Shown in pieces: positions 43,510-53,979 of a stretch of DNA of 64,000 nucleotides. The stretch is from NCBI GenBank assembly GCA_036002405.1, contig DASYTK010000013.1:3459-67458 (forward strand). Direction: 5' to 3'. Positions within the stretch are counted from its first letter, which is position 1. Each line of letters opens with the position of its first letter. Source of the stretch: Candidatus Limnocylindrales bacterium. GTDB lineage: Bacteria > Chloroflexota > Limnocylindria > Limnocylindrales > CSP1-4. Below the pieces are notes generated by a model, which worked only from the letters and a program-made list of their open reading frames with translations, was not told the origin of the DNA and made no database searches. Made by a program: the position numbers and the translations under genes.

Positions 43510-44961
43510 CTACGCGACGACGACGCGGTCCCGACCGGCCCGCTTGGCCGCGTAGAGTGCGCGGTCCGCGGCCGCGACGAGCTCGTTCAGTGGTGCCTCG
43601 GATCCCTCGGCGACGGCAACCCCGACCGAGACGCTGACCGGCTCCTCGATGCCCATCTCCCGGAGGGGGAGCGAGGCGACGGCCTGGCGTAGGCGCTCGG
43701 CGACGTCGAGGGCCTGCTCGGGGGTGGCGCGACGGAGGACGACGGCGAACTCCTCGCCCCCGTAGCGAGCGGGCAGGTCGTCCGCCCGGACGGTGGTCGC
43801 GATCGCCCCCGCAACGCGCCGCAGGACGAGATCGCCGGTCGCATGGCCGTACCGGTCGTTGAGGCCCTTGAAGTGGTCGATGTCGACCATGAGCGCACCG
43901 ATCGCGTCGCCCACGCGACGCCGCCGGCTGGAGAGGACGTCAGCGAGCTCGTCGAGATACCGACGGTTCGGGAGGCCCGTGAGCGCATCGATATTCGCCC
44001 GCACCTCGGCCGCTTCGTGGGCGTAGGCGCGGGCCAGGGCGGCTGAAGCCTCCTCGGCCGCCCACGCGAGCCGCAGGCGGGTGCCAGGCGACCACCGATC
44101 GCCGGTCCGGCGCGAGAGGACGAGCGCCCCGATGACCCTTTCCTGGGCGAGCAAGGGGGCGGCCAGGGTGTGCTTGAAGCCGTAGGCGCGCCGGACGACG
44201 GCCGCGATCCGCTCGGCGGTCGCGCTCGGATGCGCCTCCGGCCGGGATGCACCGTTCCGAGTCGGCCGGCTCGGGGCCGCCTCGCCAGTCGGCCGGCTCG
44301 GCGCCGCCTCGCCGATCGGCGGATCGATGAGCAGAGGCCTCGAGCGACCGATTCGCGCCGCCGAGGCAGCCGCGCTCATCCGTCGGTCGGGGACCCCGGC
44401 GGAGAGGCGCACGACGCTCGGATCCATGACCGGCACTGAGAATGCCGGGCCGTCCGACTCGTCTGTGGGGAGCCTGCCGCCTGGCGGGTCCGCGGCGAGC
44501 AGCGTCGTCGCGGCGGGGACCTGGCCGCTCCCCGAGACGAGCGTCGTCTCCAGGAGACGATCGTCCTGTCGCAGGCGAGCGACGACGACATGGTCGGCGC
44601 GCGAGGCGGTCCGCAGCTCCTCGACGAGTGCCTCGACGATGGAGCCGGACGAGACCGAGCGCGAGAGGCCGGCCAGGAACCGCTTCGAGCTCTCCTCGCT
44701 CTCTCGCCAGCGGGCGGCCGCCGTGGCGACGAGCCGGCGATAACCCAGCAACGCGAGGGCCAGGGCGACAAGGAGGGCGAGCGCGGCCATGTCGAGCGGG
44801 TCGAAGGCGCCCGCGACTGACCGCGCGAGGACCGCGATCGCCAGAAGCACGGACGCGCCGACGATGACCCGCCAGAGCGTCTCGACGCGCGCCTCTTCGT
44901 GGCGGAGATTCGCCCGGATCCAGCGGTCGGGTCGCGCCAGGCGGCGACGCCGATCGATCAC
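43510..44961 (-). CDS. membrane-anchored GAF-like - GGDEF diguanylate cyclase
   Basis: N-terminal TM segments and the A-site RYGGEEF with upstream conserved blocks. Contains an in-frame 27-bp tandem repeat. Confidence 0.8.
   Translation of the reverse strand: MIDRRRRLARPDRWIRANLRHEEARVETLWRVIVGASVLLAIAVLARSVAGAFDPLDMAALALLVALALALLGYRRLVATAAARWRESEESSKRFLAGLSRSVSSGSIVEALVEELRTASRADHVVVARLRQDDRLLETTLVSGSGQVPAATTLLAADPPGGRLPTDESDGPAFSVPVMDPSVVRLSAGVPDRRMSAAASAARIGRSRPLLIDPPIGEAAPSRPTGEAAPSRPTRNGASRPEAHPSATAERIAAVVRRAYGFKHTLAAPLLAQERVIGALVLSRRTGDRWSPGTRLRLAWAAEEASAALARAYAHEAAEVRANIDALTGLPNRRYLDELADVLSSRRRRVGDAIGALMVDIDHFKGLNDRYGHATGDLVLRRVAGAIATTVRADDLPARYGGEEFAVVLRRATPEQALDVAERLRQAVASLPLREMGIEEPVSVSVGVAVAEGSEAPLNELVAAADRALYAAKRAGRDRVVVA
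44258..44311. repeat. in-frame 27-bp tandem duplication (2 copies, 1 mismatch) inside the GGDEF gene
   Basis: agtcggccggctcgg(g/c)gccgcctcgcc x2, encoding the repeated peptide GEAAPSRPT in the inter-domain linker. Confidence 0.85.
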
Positions 44962-45048: not shown

Positions 45049-45839
45049 CTACGCCGGATCTTGGCGAGGCGGGCTGTTCCGTGCGGGCGCTCGGAGCCGC
45101 TTCGGCACCCCGGCGCCCCGACGCCGCCACGGAATCAACCGACCCGCCCGGGGGTCGCACCAGACCAGCCCCGGCAGTGTCGGTGGCTCCGCACCCGAGG
45201 TGAGGGCGCTCGCCCAGCCGGCGGATGAGCCCGGGAAGGCGGCGGCGAACACCTCGGGATATCGGGCGACCAGCGAGCGATTCCGTGCGATCGAGCGTAC
45301 GACCCAACATCCCGTGATGCGGTATCGGTTGCCCTGCCCGATCGCGACGGCCAGTGCCTCGGCTTCCGCAAGCTTCCGCACGAACGACCGTCGCGCGGCG
45401 CCGATATCGTCGATCGTGTTCCACGCCTCCACGACGAGAAGGAGCCGGCGGCGATCGTCGCGGAGGGCGACGTCGATCGAACGGCGCGGGTCGCTCGCGC
45501 GGGTGGGGAGCTCGAAGCTGCCGGCGAACCCGGCAGAACGCGCGAAGCGAAGGAGAACCTCCTGGATGGCCAGGTGGCCCGCGTCGACGGGGTCGCCGAC
45601 GACATCCCGCTCGAGCTGAAGCCGCAGCGGTCGGCCGACCGCGAGCGCAACGCGCTGGAGAGTCGCGATCGACAGCCTGTCGCCGAACCCGCGCTCGATC
45701 CGACTGACAGTCGTCTGGTGAAGGCCACATCGCTCACCGACAGCGGCCTGGCTGAGACGCCGTCGTCGTCTTGCGGCCCGGAGCTCGCCTCCGAGCCTCG
45801 CGAGCTGCGTCCGATTCTCACGCTCGGCCTTGTCGGACA
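45049..45839 (-). CDS. XRE-family helix-turn-helix transcriptional regulator with C-terminal uncharacterised domain
   Basis: HTH signature LSQAAVGERCGLHQTTVSRIERG. ATG at 45839 (MSDKAERENRT). Confidence 0.65.
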
Positions 45840-45908
45840 TCGGCGGTCGACGGCGCCGGCGCTTGCGCTCGAGCGTTGGCGACGCGGCCATCGATTGGGC
45901 CGGACCAG

Positions 45909-45972
45909 GTCGCGACACCTGGGGCGTCTCCGGCTGCGACACCGGAGCATGTCGCGACACCTGGGGCGTCTC
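45909..45972. promoter_or_regulatory. two identical 22-bp direct repeats (plus a third GCGACACC box), 70-130 bp upstream of the XRE regulator start: candidate operator
   Basis: gtcgcgacacctggggcgtctc occurs at 45909-45930 and 45951-45972. GCGACACC boxes are spaced about 21 bp apart. Confidence 0.4.
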
Positions 45973-46221
45973 AAGCTGCCTTCCTGTCGGATGCATGCGG
46001 ACGATGCTTGCAAGCGGGGCGTACCGGTGGATTGGCTGACGCGCTGCGAGCAACAGTCCCGGGCTTATCGGCGAGATCGCCCCTCCCTAAGCGCGCCTGG
46101 CATCGAGCCACGATAGGCGCGCCTGAGCGACGCGCTTGATCGTGTCCAGCCGGATCCCTAAGCATCCCCGGCTTGAGCGCGCTTGCTGGGGGGCGGAGGC
46201 GAGCCCGGGCGGGGGCGCGGC

Positions 46222-46335
46222 CGGCGAGGTGAGCCATCCCGCGCGGGTGCGCGGCAGCGCCGGATCTTGGCGAGGTGAGCTCGGCCGAGCGGGCCCGGCC
46301 GGCGAGGGCTGTCCCGCGCGGGTGCCCGACTCGGA
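46222..46335. repeat. GC-rich imperfect-palindrome repeat family (GGCGAGG...CCCGCGCGGGTGC units); a second cluster lies at 45022-45100
   Basis: The exact 18-mer cgccggatcttggcgagg occurs at 45057-45074 and 46258-46275. ggctgtc(c)cgcgcgggtgccc units are present at both loci, flanking the regulator gene. Confidence 0.6.
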
Positions 46336-46580
46336 CTCTCATCGAGTTGACCCTCGACGCGGGGCGCCTCTACACTCGCGCCGCGGTCGTCGGATGCCGT
46401 CCATGTCCGGCGGCACGCGGCCGAACGAGCTTCGGAGGAGCGCTCCCGCAGTGGAGACCGGACCCAGTACGGTCGGCGCGCGACGCGCCGGCAAAAGCGA
46501 GGTCCGACCCGCCCCGTAGCCCGCCCGCGCCTCGGCGCCCGGGTCAGCGCACGGCGGGCGGACCGCCTGCGAGGTGGCCC

Positions 46581-47846
46581 ATGCTCTACCTCAGCCAGGT
46601 CATCGGCCGTCCCGTGCGCGACGGCCAGGGGGAGTCGATCGGGAAGGTCGCCGACCTGATCGTGGCGCTCGGCGATCGCTACCCGCCCGTCACCGGGCTC
46701 GTCGTGATGACCGACCGCCGGCGGATCTTCCTGCCCTGGTCGGACGTGGCCAGCTTCGACGCGTCGGGGGCGACGCTGGCGACCTCGATCATCGACATCG
46801 GGAAGTTCGCCCAGCGGCCGAACGAGCTGCTTCTCTTCCTCGACCTCCAGGACAAGCAGATCGTCGACCTCGACGGCCGCAAGGTCGTCCGGGTGAACGA
46901 CCTCGTCCTCGACGAGATCGAGGGCAAGCTCCATCTCGTCGCGGTGGACGTCGGTCCCGCCGGCCTGCTCCGTCGGCTCGGCGTCGAGGGACCGGTTCGG
47001 ACGCTGGCCCGGAACCTGGGGCGCTCGGTGCCCGAGCGATTCATCGACTGGGAGGACGTCGACCCGCTCGAGAGCTCGATCGCCTCGATCCGCCTGCGCG
47101 TCCCTCACCGCGGCCTGCGCGAGCTCCACCCGGCCGATCTCGCCGGGATCATCGACGAGCTGGCACCTCGAGATCGGGCCGGGATTCTGGCGACGCTGGA
47201 CGATGAGATCGCGGCCGATGCGATCGAGGAGATGGAGCCCGACACACAGGTCGAGGTCATGGAGGACCTGGCGCCGGAGCGGGCGGCCGACATCCTCGAG
47301 GAGATGAGCCCCGACGATGCCGCCGACCTGATCGCGGACCTGTCGGACACGGCGCGGGACCGGATCCTGCCGCTGATGGAACGCGAGGAGGCCGAGGAGG
47401 TGCAGGAGCTCCTGGGCTATCCCGAGGACAGCGCGGGCGGGATCATGACGACCGAGTACATCGGGATCCCGGCGACGCTCAAGGCGAGCGAGACGATCGA
47501 CCGGCTCCGCGAGCTCGAGCCGGACGCCGAGACGATCTACTACGTCTACGTCGTCGACGAGGCCGGCAAGCTGGTCGGCGTCCTCTCGCTCCGCGACCTG
47601 ATCGTCGCCCCGGCCGACGCGGTCGTGCGCGACTTCATGCTCGGCGAGCCCGTCGCCCTCGGAGTCCTCGCCGACCAGGAGGAGGTCGCCCGCGTCGTGG
47701 CTCGATACAACCTGCTCGCCGTTCCGGTCGTGGACGACGAGGGGCGGCTCGTGGGGATCGTCACAGTCGACGATGCGCTCGATACGGTATTGCCGACTGC
47801 CTGGAAGCGGCGGCTGCCCCGGGTCTTCAGCCGGGGCGGGGGCTGA
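46581..47846 (+). CDS. cytosolic PRC-barrel + MgtE-N + tandem-CBS protein (MgtE-like Mg2+-sensing module lacking the membrane domain)
   Basis: PRC-barrel-like VIGRPVRDGQGESIGKVADLIV, the acidic MgtE_N helical bundle, and a CBS pair (IYYVYVVDEAGKLVGVLSLRDL...VPVVDDEGRLVGIVTVDD). No TM segments. A GAGGTGG SD precedes ATG 46581. Confidence 0.75.
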   Translation: MLYLSQVIGRPVRDGQGESIGKVADLIVALGDRYPPVTGLVVMTDRRRIFLPWSDVASFDASGATLATSIIDIGKFAQRPNELLLFLDLQDKQIVDLDGRKVVRVNDLVLDEIEGKLHLVAVDVGPAGLLRRLGVEGPVRTLARNLGRSVPERFIDWEDVDPLESSIASIRLRVPHRGLRELHPADLAGIIDELAPRDRAGILATLDDEIAADAIEEMEPDTQVEVMEDLAPERAADILEEMSPDDAADLIADLSDTARDRILPLMEREEAEEVQELLGYPEDSAGGIMTTEYIGIPATLKASETIDRLRELEPDAETIYYVYVVDEAGKLVGVLSLRDLIVAPADAVVRDFMLGEPVALGVLADQEEVARVVARYNLLAVPVVDDEGRLVGIVTVDDALDTVLPTAWKRRLPRVFSRGGG

Positions 47847-49219
47847 TGCGGCTGCCGGCCGCCCCGGAGGGGGTCCGCCGTCGGGTGCGGGCGGCCGGCT
47901 CGGAGCTCGGGCCGCTCGCGCGATTCCGGGAGCGGATCGCGGCAGGCGACCTCTTGCGACTGCGTCCCCGCTTCCGAGGTCGGGGCCTGCTCGCGTTCCT
48001 CGCCGTCATGGGCCCCGGGCTGATCGCGGGCATCGCGGGGAACGAGGCGGGTGGCCTGACGACCTACTCGGTGCTCGGCGCCGAGACCGGCTTCCGGCTG
48101 CTCTGGCTGTTCCCCCTGACGACCGTCGTCCTGATGATCGTCCAGGAAATGGCCGCTCGGTTGGGCGTCGTCACCGGCCAGGGCCTCTCCGACCTCATCC
48201 GCGACTGGTTCGGGGTCCGCTGGACGGCGTTCGCGATGCTCGTCCTGTTCGTCGCGAACCTGGGCCAGACGATCGCCGAGTTCGCGGGAATCGCGGCCGC
48301 GCTCGAGATCTTCGGCCTGCCGCGGCTGCTCACCGTGCCCTTGACGGCGGTCGCCCTGTGGGCGCTCGTCCTCTTCGCGAGCTACCGGACCGTCGAGCGA
48401 GTCTTCCTGTCGGTCATCCTCGTCTTCGTCACGTACATCGTGTCGGCCTTCGTCAGCGGGCCGGACTGGGGAGAGGTGGGACGGGCGCTCGTCACGCCGA
48501 GCTTCGAGCTCGCTCCGGCGACGCTCCTGCTCATGGTCGCGCTCGTGGGCACGACGATCACGCCGTACATGCAGTTCTACCTCCAGTCGGCCGTCGCCGA
48601 GAAGGGGATCGACGAGGAGGAGCTCCGGCTGGAGCAGGCCGACGCGGTCGGAGGCGCGATCTGGACGAACGTCGTCGCGCTCTTCGTCGTCGTGGCCACG
48701 GCCCAGACGCTCCACGCGGCGGGGGTGCGGATCACGGACGCGGCCGACGCCGCGCAGGCGCTGGGACCCGTGGCCGGGGAGCTCTCGACCGCCCTCTTCG
48801 CGATCGGGCTCTTCGGAGCAAGCGTGCTGGCGGCGATGATCCTGCCGATCAGCACCTCGTTCGTCATCTGCGAGGCGTTCGGCTGGGAGTCCGGGGTCGG
48901 GAAGCCCTTCCGGGAAGCACCCGCCTTCTTCGGGATCTACACCGTGACCCTGTTCGCAGGTGCGGTGATCGTCCTCCTCCCCTTCCTGCCGCCGCTCATC
49001 GACGTCCTGCTCTTCACGCAGAACCTGCAGGGGTTGCTCCTGCCGATCGTGCTCGTGTTCATGTTCCGGCTGGTGAACAACGAGCGCCTGCTGGGTCGCC
49101 ACGTGAACGGCCCGATCCGGAACGCCTTGACGCTGGCGGCGATCGTGCTGGTCGTGGCCCTCGACGCGATCCTTCTAGGAGTCGGCGCGCTCGAGGCGAT
49201 CGGTCTTCGGCTCGGCTGA
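47846..49219 (+). CDS. NRAMP-family transporter with non-canonical metal-site residues (NRMT-like)
   Basis: About 11 TM segments. TM1 reads MGPGLIAGIAGNEAGGLTT, where EAGG replaces the canonical DPGN. TM6 reads GTTITPYMQFYLQS, where TPY replaces MPH. ATG overlaps the upstream stop (TGATG). Confidence 0.8.
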   Translation: MRLPAAPEGVRRRVRAAGSELGPLARFRERIAAGDLLRLRPRFRGRGLLAFLAVMGPGLIAGIAGNEAGGLTTYSVLGAETGFRLLWLFPLTTVVLMIVQEMAARLGVVTGQGLSDLIRDWFGVRWTAFAMLVLFVANLGQTIAEFAGIAAALEIFGLPRLLTVPLTAVALWALVLFASYRTVERVFLSVILVFVTYIVSAFVSGPDWGEVGRALVTPSFELAPATLLLMVALVGTTITPYMQFYLQSAVAEKGIDEEELRLEQADAVGGAIWTNVVALFVVVATAQTLHAAGVRITDAADAAQALGPVAGELSTALFAIGLFGASVLAAMILPISTSFVICEAFGWESGVGKPFREAPAFFGIYTVTLFAGAVIVLLPFLPPLIDVLLFTQNLQGLLLPIVLVFMFRLVNNERLLGRHVNGPIRNALTLAAIVLVVALDAILLGVGALEAIGLRLG

Positions 49220-49226
49220 GACGCGA

Positions 49227-49415
49227 CTACGGGATGAAGCTTCCGGCGTCTCCGTCCGGAACGGCCCCGATCTTCTCGGTCAGCTCCTCCACGGTGCCGT
49301 GCCTGATCAGCTCCGGGCGGACGTACGGCTCGCGGGGAGGCGCGGCGGCGCCCTTCGTACCCGCGTCCTCCAGCCCGAGGCTGGCGGTCGCGCTCTCTGG
49401 CGTTCGGGTCTCCAT
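49227..49415 (-). CDS. candidate lasso-peptide precursor (62 aa; leader with YxxPxLxxxG motif, predicted core KIGAVPDGDAGSFIP)
   Basis: Small ORF translationally coupled to the cyclase (stop/start ATGA at 49424-49427), with a second ATG preceded by an AGGAG SD. The leader ...EPYVRPELIRHGTVEELTE matches the Y-x2-P-x-L-x3-G-x5-T-x motif bound by PqqD-like RREs. Confidence 0.5.
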   Translation of the reverse strand: METRTPESATASLGLEDAGTKGAAAPPREPYVRPELIRHGTVEELTEKIGAVPDGDAGSFIP

Positions 49416-49423
49416 CGATCTCC

Positions 49424-51370
49424 TCATGCCTGATCGGCCAGTTCGGCGTCGTGGCCATTGTCCACCGCCGGCGCAAGAGCCGCAGCGCTCGCCAGCGTCC
49501 GACGGCGGAGCGTTCGCGCTTCCATCCAGGCCTCGACGGCAACCGCGTTGATCACTCGTGGATCCAGGTCCCTTCGGTTCCGTCGATACGCCGCCCAGGC
49601 CGACCAGAGACCGGCCGGATCGGCGAGGACCGCCCTCGATGCGACGAATCCGCTGAGCAGGCGCTCGATCCGCGGCGCTTCGTGTTCGAGCAGGCCTCGC
49701 TCCACGAGGTCGGTGATCGTCGCCTTGGTCGTGCGTAAGCGGATCGTCTCCGGCAGCAGCCCGATCATCGCCTCCCTCAGCACTGCCCGCCCCCATCCGG
49801 CTCGATAGAGGACGGGCCGCGGCAGGTTGAGCGTGAAATCGACGAGGCGCCGGTCGAGGAACGGAAAGCGCCACTCGACCCCGGCATGACTCGCAAGCTC
49901 GTAGAACTCGACCCGGTACCAGGCTGTGAGGCCGTTGTGGAGACCTTCGTAGGCCAGTCTCGCGGCCCGGGTCCGGAGGGGCGGGGCCGGGAGCGGGTCG
50001 ACGAAGGATTCCGAGCGCGGCTGGGCGGGACGCAACCCGTTCCGACGCCTGCTCCGCCTGAGCCGCCCCAGGGAGGCCCGCAGCCGCGGCGCGAGGCTCG
50101 CCCGCACCGATTCGCGTGCCAGGATCCGGAGGCCCCGGCGCCGGGAGAGCCGCCAGAAGTGCGGAAGCTCAACGGCGAAGTCGCGCAGCGACACGTCTCG
50201 CCAGAGGCGCGGAGCCAGGTGGTACGGCGTGGAGACGAGGATCTCGTCGCCTCCGTGGCCGCTCAACAGGACCCGCAACCCGTCGGCGTGGGCGGCCCGA
50301 AGCGCGCCCACCGAGAGCGCCCGGAACATGAACGGGTCGGGCTCGGGCAGTGGATATCCGGCGTCGTCGCCGAATTCGCGGAGCGCCCATCGGTCGTCGC
50401 TCGGGATCAGCGTGATCGGGCTACCAGGCAGGCACTCGAGGAGCGCGTCGAGGTAGCGCCGCTCGTCGGCGGCGGGCGAGCGTTCGTACACGTAGGAGTA
50501 GAGCCGAGGGGCAGGGACGGCGCCCTCGTCGCTGGCGCGGCCGGCGAGCGCCGCGATCGCTGACGAGTCGAGCCCGCCGCTGACTTTGATCGCCACCGGT
50601 CCGACGCTGCGGAGCCGGGCGCGCACCGCCAGGTCGAGGAGATCCCCGAACCGCTCGACGTAGTCGTGCTCGGAGCGGAGGGGCTGCTCGACCTGCGCGC
50701 CAGAGATCCAGAACCGTCGCAGTCCCACCTCGCCGTCGGCGGCTTGCAACTGATAGCCCTGCGGCAGCCGCGAGATGGGCCGGTAGGCGGTCTCGGTCGT
50801 CCATCGATCCCACTCGCCGAGGACGATCTCGGCGAGGAGCGGCTCGTTCAGCGGTGCGTCGCCGCCGAGGCCGGCAAGGACGGCGTCGACGCCAGAGGCG
50901 AAGACGAGGAGTGACCCGTGGCGCGCGTAGTAGAGCGTCCGGATCCCGGCTGGATCTCGCGCGCAGAGCAGGCGACCGGCGATCGAGTCCCAGAGCCCGA
51001 AGGCGAAGTCGCCGATCAGGTGGGTCGGACAGTCGCTGCCCCACCGCTGATAGGCGGCCAGGATGAGCTGCGCGTCGCTGGGAATGCCGGGCGGCAGGTA
51101 CCCGGCCAGGATCGGCAGCAGCTCTTCCCGGTTGTCGATCCGCGCGTCGGCCGCGACGCAGACGTGCCCGCCGTGGCCCACGAGGGGCTGACGCTCGCCG
51201 AGCTCCTCGGGGGTCGTCCACGAATGGGCATGGATGAGCGCGACGTGCCCCCTGCTCCACCGGTCGATCCCGTCCGGGCCCCGGTGGCGCAATGCTTCGG
51301 TCAGGCTGGCAAGCAGGCTGGGGTCGACCGGCTGACCGGTCAGGTCCAGGAGCCCTGCGATCGCACTCAT
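49424..51370 (-). CDS. lasso-peptide cyclase (asparagine-synthetase-like, C protein)
   Basis: AsnB-like fold with N-terminal MSAIAGLL lacking the catalytic Cys (MCGI to MSAI). PP-loop region SGGLDSSAIAA. ATG at 51370 overlaps the stop of the upstream gene (ATGA). Confidence 0.8.
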   Translation of the reverse strand: MSAIAGLLDLTGQPVDPSLLASLTEALRHRGPDGIDRWSRGHVALIHAHSWTTPEELGERQPLVGHGGHVCVAADARIDNREELLPILAGYLPPGIPSDAQLILAAYQRWGSDCPTHLIGDFAFGLWDSIAGRLLCARDPAGIRTLYYARHGSLLVFASGVDAVLAGLGGDAPLNEPLLAEIVLGEWDRWTTETAYRPISRLPQGYQLQAADGEVGLRRFWISGAQVEQPLRSEHDYVERFGDLLDLAVRARLRSVGPVAIKVSGGLDSSAIAALAGRASDEGAVPAPRLYSYVYERSPAADERRYLDALLECLPGSPITLIPSDDRWALREFGDDAGYPLPEPDPFMFRALSVGALRAAHADGLRVLLSGHGGDEILVSTPYHLAPRLWRDVSLRDFAVELPHFWRLSRRRGLRILARESVRASLAPRLRASLGRLRRSRRRNGLRPAQPRSESFVDPLPAPPLRTRAARLAYEGLHNGLTAWYRVEFYELASHAGVEWRFPFLDRRLVDFTLNLPRPVLYRAGWGRAVLREAMIGLLPETIRLRTTKATITDLVERGLLEHEAPRIERLLSGFVASRAVLADPAGLWSAWAAYRRNRRDLDPRVINAVAVEAWMEARTLRRRTLASAAALAPAVDNGHDAELADQA

Positions 51371-52599
51371 CGAACGGCCCGGACGCGGCCGGGGAGCGCG
51401 AGGAGCCGGGGGACGTACTTCCTCGTGAGACGAAGGGGGCGGATGGCACGATAGGCGATGGGCAGGCGTCGAGCGCCCGGCAGGGCATCCCAATCGCCGC
51501 GGGTGGGCGTCGACAACGCGGCCCAGACGAGCGCCACGCGGTCGCGCGCCCGTTCCCGGACCTGGAGGTCGAACCGTTCGAGGCCCTCGAACAGGCGATC
51601 GTCGCGTCCGCGCCCGCCCTCCATGAGACGAGCGTCGATCCACTCCGCCAGGCGTCCGGCCGTGGCATCCCTCGCCATGTTGGCCGCCACCTCGGGCGGG
51701 ATCGTCGCGCCCCCGATCGTCTCGGCCAGACGCAACGCGATGGCAAGGATCCGATTGATCCCCTCTCTCCGCGCCCGGACCACAACGCGATCCCAGTCGA
51801 GGAAGGGCTCGGCTGCGATGAGCGCGGCGACGTCGGCGATCCAGGCCAGCCGTCCCCAGCGGTGCTTCGTCCCGTGGATAGCGAGTGCGAGCAGCAGGTC
51901 ATCGAGCGCCAGGTCATTGACCGGCACACCGCCGAGCGAGGTCACCCGCAGGCGCTCCCAGATCGATTCGGCGTCGAAGCCGCGGGAGTAGTAGGTGGGC
52001 ACGACAGTCCAGTGGATCTCGACGAAGGCCCTGCGACCGGGCGCCTGGAGCTGCACCTCACCGATCCGCTCGAGGTAGGCGCTCTCCTGCCAGTCCGGAA
52101 GCGGGTGGAACCGCTCGTAGCCGCGCTCGAGCAGGAGTCCGACGGATTCGGCGATCCGGCCCCGCGGCACGATGATGTCGAGATCACCGAACTGGCGCAG
52201 GCCGAGGTCACCGTAGGCGGACAGGGCGAGGAGGGGCCCCTTCCAGGGGACGGCCGGGATGCCCGCCTCGGCGAACGTCGCCAGGATCTCCATGAGGCGA
52301 CCGGTCAGGGCGAGGTTCCGATCGGCGATCGCCCGCGCCCTGGTCGCGATCGCAACGGCCGCGTCCGGAGGAACGAGCCCGCCCCAGCCCGCCGCCGCCC
52401 GAGCCAGGAGAGGGACCAGCGCGTGTCTCTCCGCGGCAGCCAGCAGACCCGTCCAGTCGAGCCCGCGCGCCTCGGCCGGCGTGACCGAGGGCGGATCGGC
52501 GGGGAAGCGAGCCAGCGCGCGGAGGATCGTCGGCTCGCCTGAGACTGCCTCGGGCGTCCGATCCGCGGGAACCGCCGAAACTCCCGCCGCCATCGTCAT
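51367..52599 (-). CDS. nucleotidyltransferase-family protein of the lasso cluster (putative tailoring enzyme)
   Basis: Minimal-NTase motif GPLLALSAYGDLGLRQFGDLDIIVP. ATGA overlaps on both sides. Confidence 0.65.
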   Translation of the reverse strand: MTMAAGVSAVPADRTPEAVSGEPTILRALARFPADPPSVTPAEARGLDWTGLLAAAERHALVPLLARAAAGWGGLVPPDAAVAIATRARAIADRNLALTGRLMEILATFAEAGIPAVPWKGPLLALSAYGDLGLRQFGDLDIIVPRGRIAESVGLLLERGYERFHPLPDWQESAYLERIGEVQLQAPGRRAFVEIHWTVVPTYYSRGFDAESIWERLRVTSLGGVPVNDLALDDLLLALAIHGTKHRWGRLAWIADVAALIAAEPFLDWDRVVVRARREGINRILAIALRLAETIGGATIPPEVAANMARDATAGRLAEWIDARLMEGGRGRDDRLFEGLERFDLQVRERARDRVALVWAALSTPTRGDWDALPGARRLPIAYRAIRPLRLTRKYVPRLLALPGRVRAVR

Positions 52600-53552
52600 G
52601 CCGGATCCTGGGCGACGATCCGCACCGCTTCGTCGAGCCGCGTCAGGTCACGCGGTCGCCGCAGCCGATCGATCGGGACCCCGGAGACGACCCTGGCGCA
52701 CTGGCCGAGGTGCTCCCCGGCGGTCCCGGAATCGAGCAGGACGCGGGCAAGGAACGAGTGCCGCACGAGCTCCGCGATCGCATCGAGCGAAGCGATCCGC
52801 TCCCTCTCGACGCGGCGCCCCTCCGCGAGGACGTGGATCGCGGCCAGGGGAAAGGGCCTCTCCCCCGCCGGCTCGATCGGCCGGCCGCGTTTCTGGCGCG
52901 CGAAACCGAGAGGAACCACCGCCCGGTCCTCCTCGCCCAGGAAGGTGGCGGCCGCAGGGGTGAGCTTCAGCATCGGAACTCCCGGATGAAGCACCGGGGA
53001 GCCCGCGGCGATCTCGATCGCGGCGAGATCGTCGGTGAGCACCGTCATCCCGGCACGCCGACAGGCGGCGGCGAGCGTCGACTTGCCGGCGCCGGGTTGG
53101 CCGAGGAACAGGTGGGCCCGCCCGGCCATCAGGATCCCGCTCGCGTGCAGGGCCAGGTGGCCGCGCTGATGAAGGAGAAAGGCGAGCCCGGGACCGAGGA
53201 TCATCGCCCGCAGCTGCTCCCCCGACGCGCCGGGCGCCGCCTCGACGACGATCTCGCGGCCGGCCTTCACCTCGAGGGCGCCGATCCCGTCGTAGACGAG
53301 GCGGGCGAGGTCCCTCTCCACCCGTCGCCGCCCCATCCTGAGCGACATCGGGATCATGTGCTCGTCGTGTTCGAGAGTCCCGCGCCGGACGGTCGCGACC
53401 GGATCGCCCGCCACCGGATGAAGCTCGGGCAGAGGCAGCTCCGAATCGAAGATCACGCCGTAGGCCCGATAGCGCCGGTCGGCCGCGCCGATCTCGGACC
53501 TGTGGCCCTCAGATCGCGTTGGCGATGCGCGATTCCACCGATACCGACCCAT
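52596..53552 (-). CDS. HPr-kinase-related (HprK-like) serine kinase of the lasso cluster
   Basis: HprK C-domain P-loop GILMAGRAHLFLGQPGAGKSTLAAACRRAGMTVLTDD. N-terminal RYRAYGVIFDSELPLPEL resembles lasso tailoring kinases. Start uncertain (ATG 53552, GTG 53591 or GTG about 53458). Confidence 0.65.
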   Translation of the reverse strand: MGRYRWNRASPTRSEGHRSEIGAADRRYRAYGVIFDSELPLPELHPVAGDPVATVRRGTLEHDEHMIPMSLRMGRRRVERDLARLVYDGIGALEVKAGREIVVEAAPGASGEQLRAMILGPGLAFLLHQRGHLALHASGILMAGRAHLFLGQPGAGKSTLAAACRRAGMTVLTDDLAAIEIAAGSPVLHPGVPMLKLTPAAATFLGEEDRAVVPLGFARQKRGRPIEPAGERPFPLAAIHVLAEGRRVERERIASLDAIAELVRHSFLARVLLDSGTAGEHLGQCARVVSGVPIDRLRRPRDLTRLDEAVRIVAQDPA

Positions 53553-53979
53553 CGCTCCTTCCCGACTCACGACGAAGCTGGGTAAAGGCACGCCGCTCTT
53601 CTCCGCCGACCACGATCGTCTCGCCTGCCATCACCCATGCGTGCGCCCTGAGTCGCTCGCCCGGGGAACGCGCCACCCCGATCTGAAGCTCGCTGGGGAC
53701 TCCCGAGCGAGCCAGGAGCAGCTGTGCGGCAAAGGCCTGCGTGAGGCAGCTCGCGCCCGGTACGACGCGGCTTGCGGCGCGCACCGCCCAGCCCACCCTG
53801 GCCACGTCGATCGGGGCACGTCCACTCGTGGCGCGCGATCGGCCGAGCACGAACGCGTGGACCCGACGGAACGAGAGCAGCGGCAGGACGGCACGAGTCG
53901 ATGCGACCGCGATCAACGCCTGGAGCACCAGTCTCCGATCGGCCATCGACAGGCCGAGGAACCTACGCAGCCTCGCCAT
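53509..53979 (-). CDS. lasso-peptide leader peptidase B2 (transglutaminase-like Cys protease)
   Basis: Catalytic-Cys region ASCLTQAFAAQLLLARSGVPSELQIGV and a His region LRAHAWVMAGE. Overlaps B1 by 17 nt. Confidence 0.75.
   Translation of the reverse strand: MARLRRFLGLSMADRRLVLQALIAVASTRAVLPLLSFRRVHAFVLGRSRATSGRAPIDVARVGWAVRAASRVVPGASCLTQAFAAQLLLARSGVPSELQIGVARSPGERLRAHAWVMAGETIVVGGEERRAFTQLRRESGRSDGSVSVESRIANAI

Follow-up and report, generated by a model that had tools for sequence, protein, structure and literature searches.

A predicted Mg2+ uptake operon of the NRMT type and its conserved leader in a Limnocylindrales genome

A transporter gene of the Nramp family that lacks the canonical metal-site motifs, and whose start overlaps the stop of a gene resembling the cytosolic part of the Mg2+ transporter MgtE, raises the question of which ion is transported, what the soluble protein contributes and how the pair is controlled. 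Two such open reading frames (ORFs) lie in the stretch of DNA studied here, 64,000 nucleotides (nt) with a GC content of ~71% from a Candidatus Limnocylindrales (Chloroflexota) genome, hereafter referred to as the window. In an original prediction made from the sequence, ORF1 was described as a separate Mg2+-sensing subunit, coupled to and gating an NRMT-type Mg2+ importer encoded by ORF2.

Our results point to an operon of two genes for Mg2+ uptake that belongs to the published NrmT/NRMT type, with a sensor partner and a leader containing a short upstream ORF (uORF), a reading to which we assign a probability of about 65%. The pairing of such a sensor with an NRMT was already published in 2014, and the central idea of the original prediction is a rediscovery; the most interesting element of the locus is the uORF leader, which would add a further variant to the leader-peptide control known for Mg2+ transport.

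The transporter, its partner and their pairing

The product of ORF2 matches the Pfam family Nramp (PF01566; E = 6.3e-91). Among solved structures, EleNRMT (7QIA; E = 6.7e-105, 45% identity over 403 amino acids, aa) is by far the closest to it, whereas canonical Nramps score 5.7e-24 or weaker, with about 1e-22 for DraNramp, ScaDMT and EcoDMT. In HMMER alignments to DraNramp and to a clade-B Nramp, N-E-A-G-G lies beneath (I/M)-D-P-G-N and T-T-I-T-P-Y beneath A-T-V-M-P-H, which excludes a misalignment and shows that the predicted replacement of DPGN by EAGG and of MPH by TPY is real. The further claim that soft ligands had been lost through both the Met-to-Thr and the Asn-to-Gly changes holds for the first only: Met, the sole soft ligand, is replaced by Thr, but Asn is a hard oxygen ligand and was never a soft one.

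Ramanadane et al. (2022; PMC8806188) recognize the NRMT clade by a signature composed of DxxG in helix 1 and TxxA/T in helix 6. In the present protein this signature takes the form ExxG-TxxT: on α1 the Gly is present (G70) and Asp is replaced by Glu (E67), and the α6 motif is provided by T236 and T239. Among 150 representatives of the family, DxxG-TxxT occurred in 41, TxxA in 35 and TxxS in 16, the commonest form being TxxT followed by PY. The His pair of α6b corresponds to Y241 and L246, and residues E124, D131, R352 and R353 of DraNramp to Phe, Thr, Ile and Thr, as read from pairwise HMMER alignments only; the canonical H+-pathway residues are lost and the α3 Glu (E145, EleNRMT E133) and α10 Gln (Q392, EleNRMT Q379) are retained, matching the description of EleNRMT. 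Judged by sequence, the product of ORF2 is an NRMT-clade SLC11 transporter, as anticipated, and Gly in place of Asn, with Thr in place of both Ala and Met, gives it a predicted widened all-oxygen site that matches the one of EleNRMT. EleNRMT transports Mg2+ and Mn2+, and not Ca2+, without proton coupling; its residue T224 is important for Mg2+, and D55 and Q379 are required (PMC8806188).

Regarding ORF1, the expected domain composition without a membrane domain was confirmed by Pfam: PRC matches in two stretches (the best at residues 2-56), followed by MgtE_N at 182-283 (E = 3.6e-28) and two CBS domains reaching residue ~402. The MgtE pore domain (PF01769) had no Pfam match in this protein, which stops 18 residues past the second CBS; likewise, the NCBIfam mgtE model TIGR00400 scored under its cutoff and was covered just at positions 27-251 of 450, corresponding to the cytosolic part. 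The closest solved relative is the cytosolic domain of Thermus thermophilus MgtE (TtMgtE; 2YVY, E = 5e-49, 46% identity over 228 aa). On these matches, the first gene encodes an MgtE cytosolic module without the pore, and no MgtE transporter. In TtMgtE, mutation of E59, D91/D247, D95 and D226/D250 impairs Mg2+-dependent closure, and five of the six cytosolic Mg2+-site residues are acidic in the partner (E59 corresponds to D213, D91 to D245, D95 to D249, D247 to D398 and D250 to D401), the position of D95 being Asp in all 69 partners compared. The conserved residues fit a Mg2+-sensing clamp. Against this, one Mg2+ site is incomplete, since D226 corresponds to Asn here and mostly to Asn across the partners, and the plug-helix sites E258/D259 have no equivalent; in place of the acidic plug helix there is a conserved basic tail, LPTAWKRRLPRVF, with the Chloroflexota consensus LP-x-AWK(R/K)RLPR(L/V)F.

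Partners have a median length of 415 aa, and the PRC, MgtE_N and CBS architecture is identical in Clostridium. An AlphaFold2 model of the partner reached a mean predicted local distance difference test score (pLDDT) of 63, with most of the 180 N-terminal residues below 50 (alignment of 32 sequences of low diversity), and was not used. In two Actinobacterial loci, L080 (Coriobacteriales) and L049 (Actinomycetes), the partner is extended at the C-terminus by ~215 aa with several hydrophobic segments, and it may be membrane-anchored in the lineage to which Eggerthella belongs. The extra part of the L080 protein was considered as an MgtE pore, which Pfam did not recognize.

The two genes overlap by 1 nt, as predicted: in the junction GGGGGC-TGATG-CGG (TGATG at 47844-47848), the A is common to the TGA (47844-47846) and the ATG (47846-47848). 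Identical proteins with the same gene calls (421 and 457 aa) are encoded in two independent Joint Genome Institute (JGI) metagenome contigs, and both proteins have also been deposited for a Candidatus Limnocylindrales (Chloroflexota) metagenome-assembled genome. To survey the pairing, 80 genome loci of transporter relatives were collected from Chloroflexota, Clostridia, Syntrophales, Nitrospirota, Margulisiibacteriota, Actinobacteria and others, 77 of them with enough upstream DNA; the transporter family itself comprises 786 clusters at 50% identity (E <= 1e-30). A homolog of ORF1 was found directly upstream on the same strand in 74 of the 77 informative loci, spanning, where the contig allows, residues 1-3 to ~400-420 of the present partner, PRC region included. 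The nearest start of the transporter lay at -4 nt from the partner stop in 17 loci, at -1 nt in 3 and otherwise mostly within +36 nt, the choice of start being heuristic. The NRMT genes of the remaining three loci (L033, L043 and L072; Bacillota/Clostridium) have no partner within ~4 kb upstream, and in L072 an M-box stands directly before the transporter; because of these loci, the partner is dispensable in some lineages.

This arrangement was described by Shin et al. (2014; PMC4072509), who found most NrmT genes immediately downstream of a gene for a homolog of the MgtE cytoplasmic domain ("mgtE-nramp operons") and speculated that the partner gives cytoplasmic feedback regulation, listing a chaperone role as an alternative. 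Later literature on the partner, or on PRC+MgtE+CBS proteins in general, yielded nothing relevant in a searchable library that is incomplete. Gating of the transporter by the partner must be weighed against a co-transcribed partner that does not gate, and acts instead as a metal chaperone or buffer, as an assembly or stability factor, or as a regulator of some other target through its PRC barrels. Several observations speak for such a role: in the sole published test, co-expression of the partner of the Acidobacterium capsulatum pair Acp2976/2977 left Mg2+ rescue unchanged (PMC4072509); NRMTs are active alone, as was the case for CabNrmT in complementation (PMC4072509) and for EleNRMT in proteoliposomes (PMC8806188); partner-less NRMT genes exist; and neither the PRC barrels nor the basic C-terminal tail has a counterpart in MgtE gating. 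On the other hand, the adjacency holds in loci from several phyla, where stop and start often overlap, identity among the top matches is higher for the partner (78-87%) than for the transporter (68-84%), and the Mg2+ ligands at the N-CBS interface that drive closure of MgtE are conserved. We regard a non-gating partner as rather unlikely, and gating as a reasonable hypothesis, by now twelve years old.

The leader region and ion specificity

Related loci share 66-77% identity over ~170 nt upstream of ORF1, and a profile of this whole leader matches the window at 46418-46586 (E = 1e-24). The leader lies outside the coordinates of the original prediction, which did not include it. In 99 sequences the profile gave exactly one match per locus, always on the strand of the gene that follows, whereas the 55 loci from other phyla gave none; a pattern scan of metagenomes gave ~70 further instances, for a total of 83 unique leaders, and about 80 Limnocylindria sequences show the conserved leader. 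A -10-like element (TACACT, TAGACT or TACGCT) lies 206-252 nt upstream of the partner ATG in 19 of 21 related loci that were scanned, as in the putative promoter of the window (Table 1).

The leader contains two kinds of conserved elements, a short uORF and a structured spacer that precedes the partner gene. Frame, stop, Shine-Dalgarno (SD) sequence and peptide ends are all conserved in the uORF, which argues for its translation. In 82 unique leaders, a set chosen without any ORF filter, an in-frame stop follows 20-36 codons past the GTG in 81, compared with 17 and 7 for the other two frames, and the frame is preserved across fifteen uORF lengths with the stop at a conserved place. The peptide is conserved at its ends, M-[ED]-x-G-P-[SRN]...V-[RH]-P-x-x-stop, and variable in the middle. 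In related leaders, GGAGG or GAGG followed by CUCC is kept 11-13 nt before the GTG; a pairing of GGAG with CUCC around this SD can only be inferred, because the SD side cannot covary.

In the spacer, two hairpins (H1 and H2) and an anti-SD segment (consensus GCCACC; GGGUCAGC at 46541-46548) lie upstream of the main SD, GAGGTGG, which sits 3 nt before the partner ATG. In the minimum free energy (MFE) folds of 81 of the 83 leaders, the main SD is paired with the anti-SD, and H2 (GGCGGG...CCGCC) is nested between them. A covariance model, R1, matches the window at 46502-46586 (40.8 bits, E = 7e-5); over 706 kb it gave one match per locus, all on the + strand, several of them in loci absent from the seed alignment. 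With the three-helix model, 81.5% of cells were paired in a plain MAFFT alignment, against 38-45% when the model was slid, and 86.6% against 37-56% in the covariance-model alignment of 71 leaders. Compensatory changes were found in 13 of the 18 pairs, with 81 double-change cells against 26±4 in shuffled alignments (0 of 500 shuffles as high). The 71-leader alignment is fitted to the model and the leaders are related to one another; moreover, from the plain MAFFT alignment RNAalifold retrieved the anti-SD:SD helix alone, and H1 and H2 needed a hand-drawn structure and realignment with the covariance model, so that the counts are biased toward the structure. Two further points weigh against it, namely that the anti-SD:SD helix is nearly invariant, with little covariation, and that the window's own leader, a GC-rich sequence, folds no better than its shuffles (z = -1.31). 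Overall, covarying hairpins H1 and H2 and an SD-sequestering helix are supported by the leader alignments.

A scan of the leader found no terminator-like site, and its control is for this reason probably translational. Rfam gave no match at gathering score in the whole window, only noise at E <= 10 over 45800-46700, with the M-box (RF00380) absent, and no match, M-box included, in 18 Chloroflexota loci; the leader is consequently neither an M-box nor a member of another curated family. A search for leader peptides of Mg2+ transporters outside enterobacteria returned nothing relevant from a searchable library that is incomplete. Because no Rfam family matches and nothing was found in the searchable literature, the uORF leader looks undescribed so far.

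The conserved structure could also belong to an untranslated RNA, that is, a riboswitch or a protein-binding site, or to a mere conserved 5′ untranslated region, in which case the uORF would be incidental and no Mg2+ sensing would be required. The covariation of H1 and H2 and the conserved SD-sequestering helix would suit such an RNA, as would the capacity of the most conserved leader nucleotides, GUGGAGnCCGGACCCAG, to pair with a downstream GGUCCG and the GGA codon for Gly, unusually invariant for a genome of 70% GC. However, besides the conserved frame and the spacing of the uORF SD, the Gly and Pro codons vary synonymously (GGA to GGT; CCC, CCT and CCG), a change of VRP to LRP in one leader (L001) weakens the pairing and keeps the peptide, and Rfam holds no family for this RNA. 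An untranslated leader thus seems improbable to us, and a leader with a probably translated uORF is retained in what follows.

The genes that follow the leader bear on the ion transported. The first ORF after it is the partner gene in 94 of the 99 profile matches; in three loci (L126, L185 and L203), a leader with uORF and anti-SD also precedes corA. The CorA proteins of these loci carry the GMN motif and match PF01544, and a full-length MgtE gene follows corA in L126 and L203. One putative regulatory element serves three unrelated families of Mg2+ transporters; Shin et al. had arrived at NrmT from the M-box by this same reasoning, and a leader common to a corA-mgtE operon supports a Mg2+ role. 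This link is weakened by its basis in three contigs of a single lineage, with CorA proteins at least 93% identical, and by the presence of the leader upstream of corA in only one (L203) of eight CorA loci searched for it, the seven others being without it. The only other profile match among the CorA loci (L208) has the leader 5′ of a partner gene on the other strand.

Some additional features of the corA loci were observed. In the corA context, the leader SD/ATG opens a 26-codon ORF (MTTLNQPFGQVVPLVPGRASACRGRG in L126) whose TGA overlaps the corA ATG in L126, L185 and L203; because of this overlap, translation of corA would be coupled to that of this second small ORF. Locus L208 (JGI contig Ga0679468_0001164) contains, within 6 kb, a PRC+MgtE_N+CBS gene with the leader, two CorA genes and one Nramp gene, which does not adjoin the partner gene. 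Loci L206 and L207, whose corA (locus position 2501) encodes proteins 78-79% identical to CorA of L126, are without the ME-x-GP leader and have a Pro-rich short uORF (MGSSQPPSPH-stop and MSSSQPPSPH-stop) behind GGGAGG, ~100 nt upstream of corA, which may be a second type of leader peptide for Mg2+ transporters of Chloroflexota.

Further evidence on the ion comes from the M-box. It lies 5′ of the partner gene in 10 Firmicutes loci (88-154 bits) whose transporters have the same site type, DAGG/TTITPY, and an eleventh Firmicutes locus has it directly before a partner-less transporter; its absence from the locus studied here and from the 18 Chloroflexota loci counts against a Mg2+ role. The pair might instead be primarily an importer of Mn2+ or another transition metal, with a partner that senses that metal or something else. 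A precedent is Acp2977, which has a partner and no M-box and which fully rescued a Mn2+-uptake mutant, with partial Mg2+ rescue at millimolar levels (PMC4072509); EleNRMT also transports Mn2+ (PMC8806188), and Glu in place of Asp could alter selectivity. Yet it is the TxxT, PY site type that sits behind the M-boxes of the 10 Firmicutes loci, the upstream leader is shared with a corA-mgtE operon, the site of the transporter has no soft ligand, and the acidic residues of the MgtE Mg2+ sites are retained in the partner. We consider a primary role in Mn2+ import unlikely, and uptake of Mg2+ the better reading of this operon.

A last point against that reading concerns the metal-binding Asp of helix 1 (EleNRMT D55), which is Glu (E67) in the present transporter. 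This Asp has been called "universally conserved in all SLC11 proteins", and D55A strongly compromises transport by EleNRMT (PMC8806188). The original prediction gave the EAGG motif but missed the change at this position. Asp is present in 197 of 202 close relatives and in 117 of the 122 diverse representatives with a residue at this column, 2 of which have Glu. The five close relatives with Glu are the present protein, its identical database copy, two proteins at 82-84% identity (P0002 and P0003) and L070 (51% identity). The replacement is real, inherited and rare (~2% of relatives), and independent in L070. That so rare a change has inactivated or repurposed the transporter is highly improbable, given that Glu retains the carboxylate, is shared with P0002 and P0003 and arose separately in L070, that conservation is high in the remainder of the site and throughout the protein, and that the ORF is intact in two independent contigs.

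Layout of the locus and neighbouring genes

The features of the operon and of its surroundings are collected in Table 1. The two genes upstream are transcribed divergently from the operon, and the XRE-type regulator is also a neighbour in both JGI contigs. A lasso-peptide-like gene cluster directly follows the transporter gene. The C-terminal part of the product of its 66-aa gene, YVRPELIRHGTVEELT-EKIGAVPDGDAGSFIP, fits the lasso leader motif YxxPxLxxxGxxxxxTx; the predicted core is KIGAVPDGDAGSFIP, in which Lys at position 1 would be unusual.

Table 1. Features of the locus, with positions in the window
Feature	Position	Strand	Evidence
Promoter-like site TTGACC-18 nt-TACACT (putative)	46347-46376	+	Consensus scan: one site versus 0.1 by chance
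uORF SD GGAGGA in small hairpin GGAG-gagcg-CUCC	46434-46446	+	Only exact pattern match in the window
uORF, GTG to TAG, 22 codons, METGPSTVGARRAGKSEVRPAP	46451-46519	+	Conserved frame, ends and SD
Structured spacer: H1 (~46527-46538), anti-SD (46541-46548), H2 (46553-46567), main SD GAGGTGG (46571-46577)	46520-46580	+	Covariance model, MFE folds
Partner gene: soluble PRC-barrel + MgtE_N + 2xCBS protein, 421 aa	46581-47846	+	Pfam, NCBIfam and PDB matches
NRMT-clade SLC11 transporter, 457 aa, signature ExxG-TxxT	47846-49219	+	Pfam, HMMER versus solved structures
GAF-GGDEF diguanylate cyclase	43510-44961	-	
HTH_3/XRE-type regulator	45049-46053	-	
Lasso-peptide-like gene cluster	49227-53979	-	
66-aa gene, candidate lasso precursor	49227-49427	-	C-terminal part YVRPELIRHGTVEELT-EKIGAVPDGDAGSFIP
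Asn-synthase-like cyclase, lasso-like cluster	49424-51643	-	Domain match
NTP_transf_5, lasso-like cluster	51367-52599	-	Domain match
Possible kinase-like ORF, lasso-like cluster	52596-53591	-	Weak AAA_33 match
Transglut_core3 (PF13471), lasso-like cluster	53509-53979	-	Pfam

Proposed mechanism and comparison with known systems

In the mechanism that we propose, the membrane potential would drive import of Mg2+ in largely hydrated form (and of Mn2+) by the transporter, as extrapolated from EleNRMT, and the partner would close on binding of Mg2+ (perhaps ATP) and then restrain the transporter, the feedback role proposed by Shin et al. (2014). For the leader, a model is offered by mgtL and corL, short leader ORFs that control enterobacterial mgtA and corA: their translation at low Mg2+ is inefficient owing to Pro and acidic residues close to the N-terminus, a stem encloses the SD of the uORF, and the transporter is repressed when the uORF is translated efficiently (PMC11552253). 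By analogy, the present leader suggests an mgtL/corL-like translational Mg2+ sensor. At high Mg2+, ribosomes would complete the uORF, and termination a few nt before H1 would favour the anti-SD:SD helix and turn expression off; at low Mg2+, early stalling in the uORF would let an alternative fold occupy the anti-SD and turn expression on. The SD-sequestering OFF fold is the only part of this switch with support from the data, the ON fold and the direction of regulation being guesses.

Joined together, these elements would amount to an undescribed translational Mg2+ sensor of Limnocylindria, unrelated to the M-box or to mgtL and composed of an ME-x-GP...VRP peptide, two hairpins and an anti-SD helix, which controls the NRMT with its partner, CorA and MgtE, together with a PRC-MgtE_N-CBS protein that gates an SLC11 uniporter by cytosolic Mg2+ or ATP; we put this forward as a tentative possibility. 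If the leader is Mg2+-responsive, it would join the M-box and mgtL/corL as a third independent way of controlling transporter genes by Mg2+, and would be a marker for Mg2+ regulons in an abundant uncultured lineage of soil and freshwater. The gene pair itself adds little, as one more member of a very large family whose architecture was published in 2014 and whose fold was solved in 2022. The survey does sharpen the question of the partner's role, standing since 2014, by defining a cross-phylum protein of ~415 aa that keeps the MgtE Mg2+ ligands and whose conserved basic tail could be a transporter contact, and the Glu variant at a "universally conserved" Asp is an easy test of how strict that ligand is.

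Among solved transporters, the likeness to EleNRMT (7QIA) lies in Gly at the Asn position, Thr at the position of T224, the equivalents of Q379 and E133, and the replacement of the α6b His and of the α3/α9 proton-path residues. The Limnocylindrales transporter differs in having E67 for Asp55, Thr (TxxT, PY) where EleNRMT has Ala (TxxA, PW), and an N-terminal extension of ~45 aa; a partner protein goes unmentioned in the EleNRMT paper (PMC8806188). The partner resembles the cytosolic domain of T. thermophilus MgtE (2YVY/2YVX) in its N domain and tandem CBS domains and keeps the ligands of Mg4, Mg6 and Mg7 and one ligand of Mg5, but it is without the plug helix and the pore of five transmembrane helices and has ~170 extra N-terminal residues with the PRC barrel, a basic tail, and Asn for D226.

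As an operon, the closest counterparts are the mgtE-nramp operons (NrmT) of Clostridium acetobutylicum (Ca_c0685 and Ca_c3329; PMC4072509), with an identical gene order, a gene for the MgtE cytoplasmic domain followed by an Nramp-related gene; the Clostridium loci that we retrieved share the PRC+MgtE_N+CBS partner and the DAGG/TTITPY site type. Unlike the operon studied here, the partner of C. acetobutylicum is split across two genes; Shin et al. termed the partner "small" and never mentioned PRC barrels, whereas ours is a protein of 421 aa with PRC. The Acp2976/Acp2977 pair of A. capsulatum is alike as a partner and NRMT-clade pair without an M-box, but Acp2977 served chiefly for Mn2+ import, and no effect of its partner could be measured.

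With respect to control, the clostridial operons are under an M-box riboswitch (RF00380), which occupies the same place 5′ of the partner gene and presumably serves the same physiological purpose as the present leader, whereas the latter has a uORF and no RF00380 match even at E <= 10. The likeness to mgtL and corL of Salmonella and E. coli lies in a short uORF whose product has an acidic residue and Pro close to its N-terminus, here the acidic residue at position 2 and Gly-Pro at positions 4-5, in an SD placed in a stem, here a hairpin, and in the structures downstream; there is no sequence relationship, the phylum is different, and the output here appears to be sequestration of the SD rather than Rho-dependent termination.

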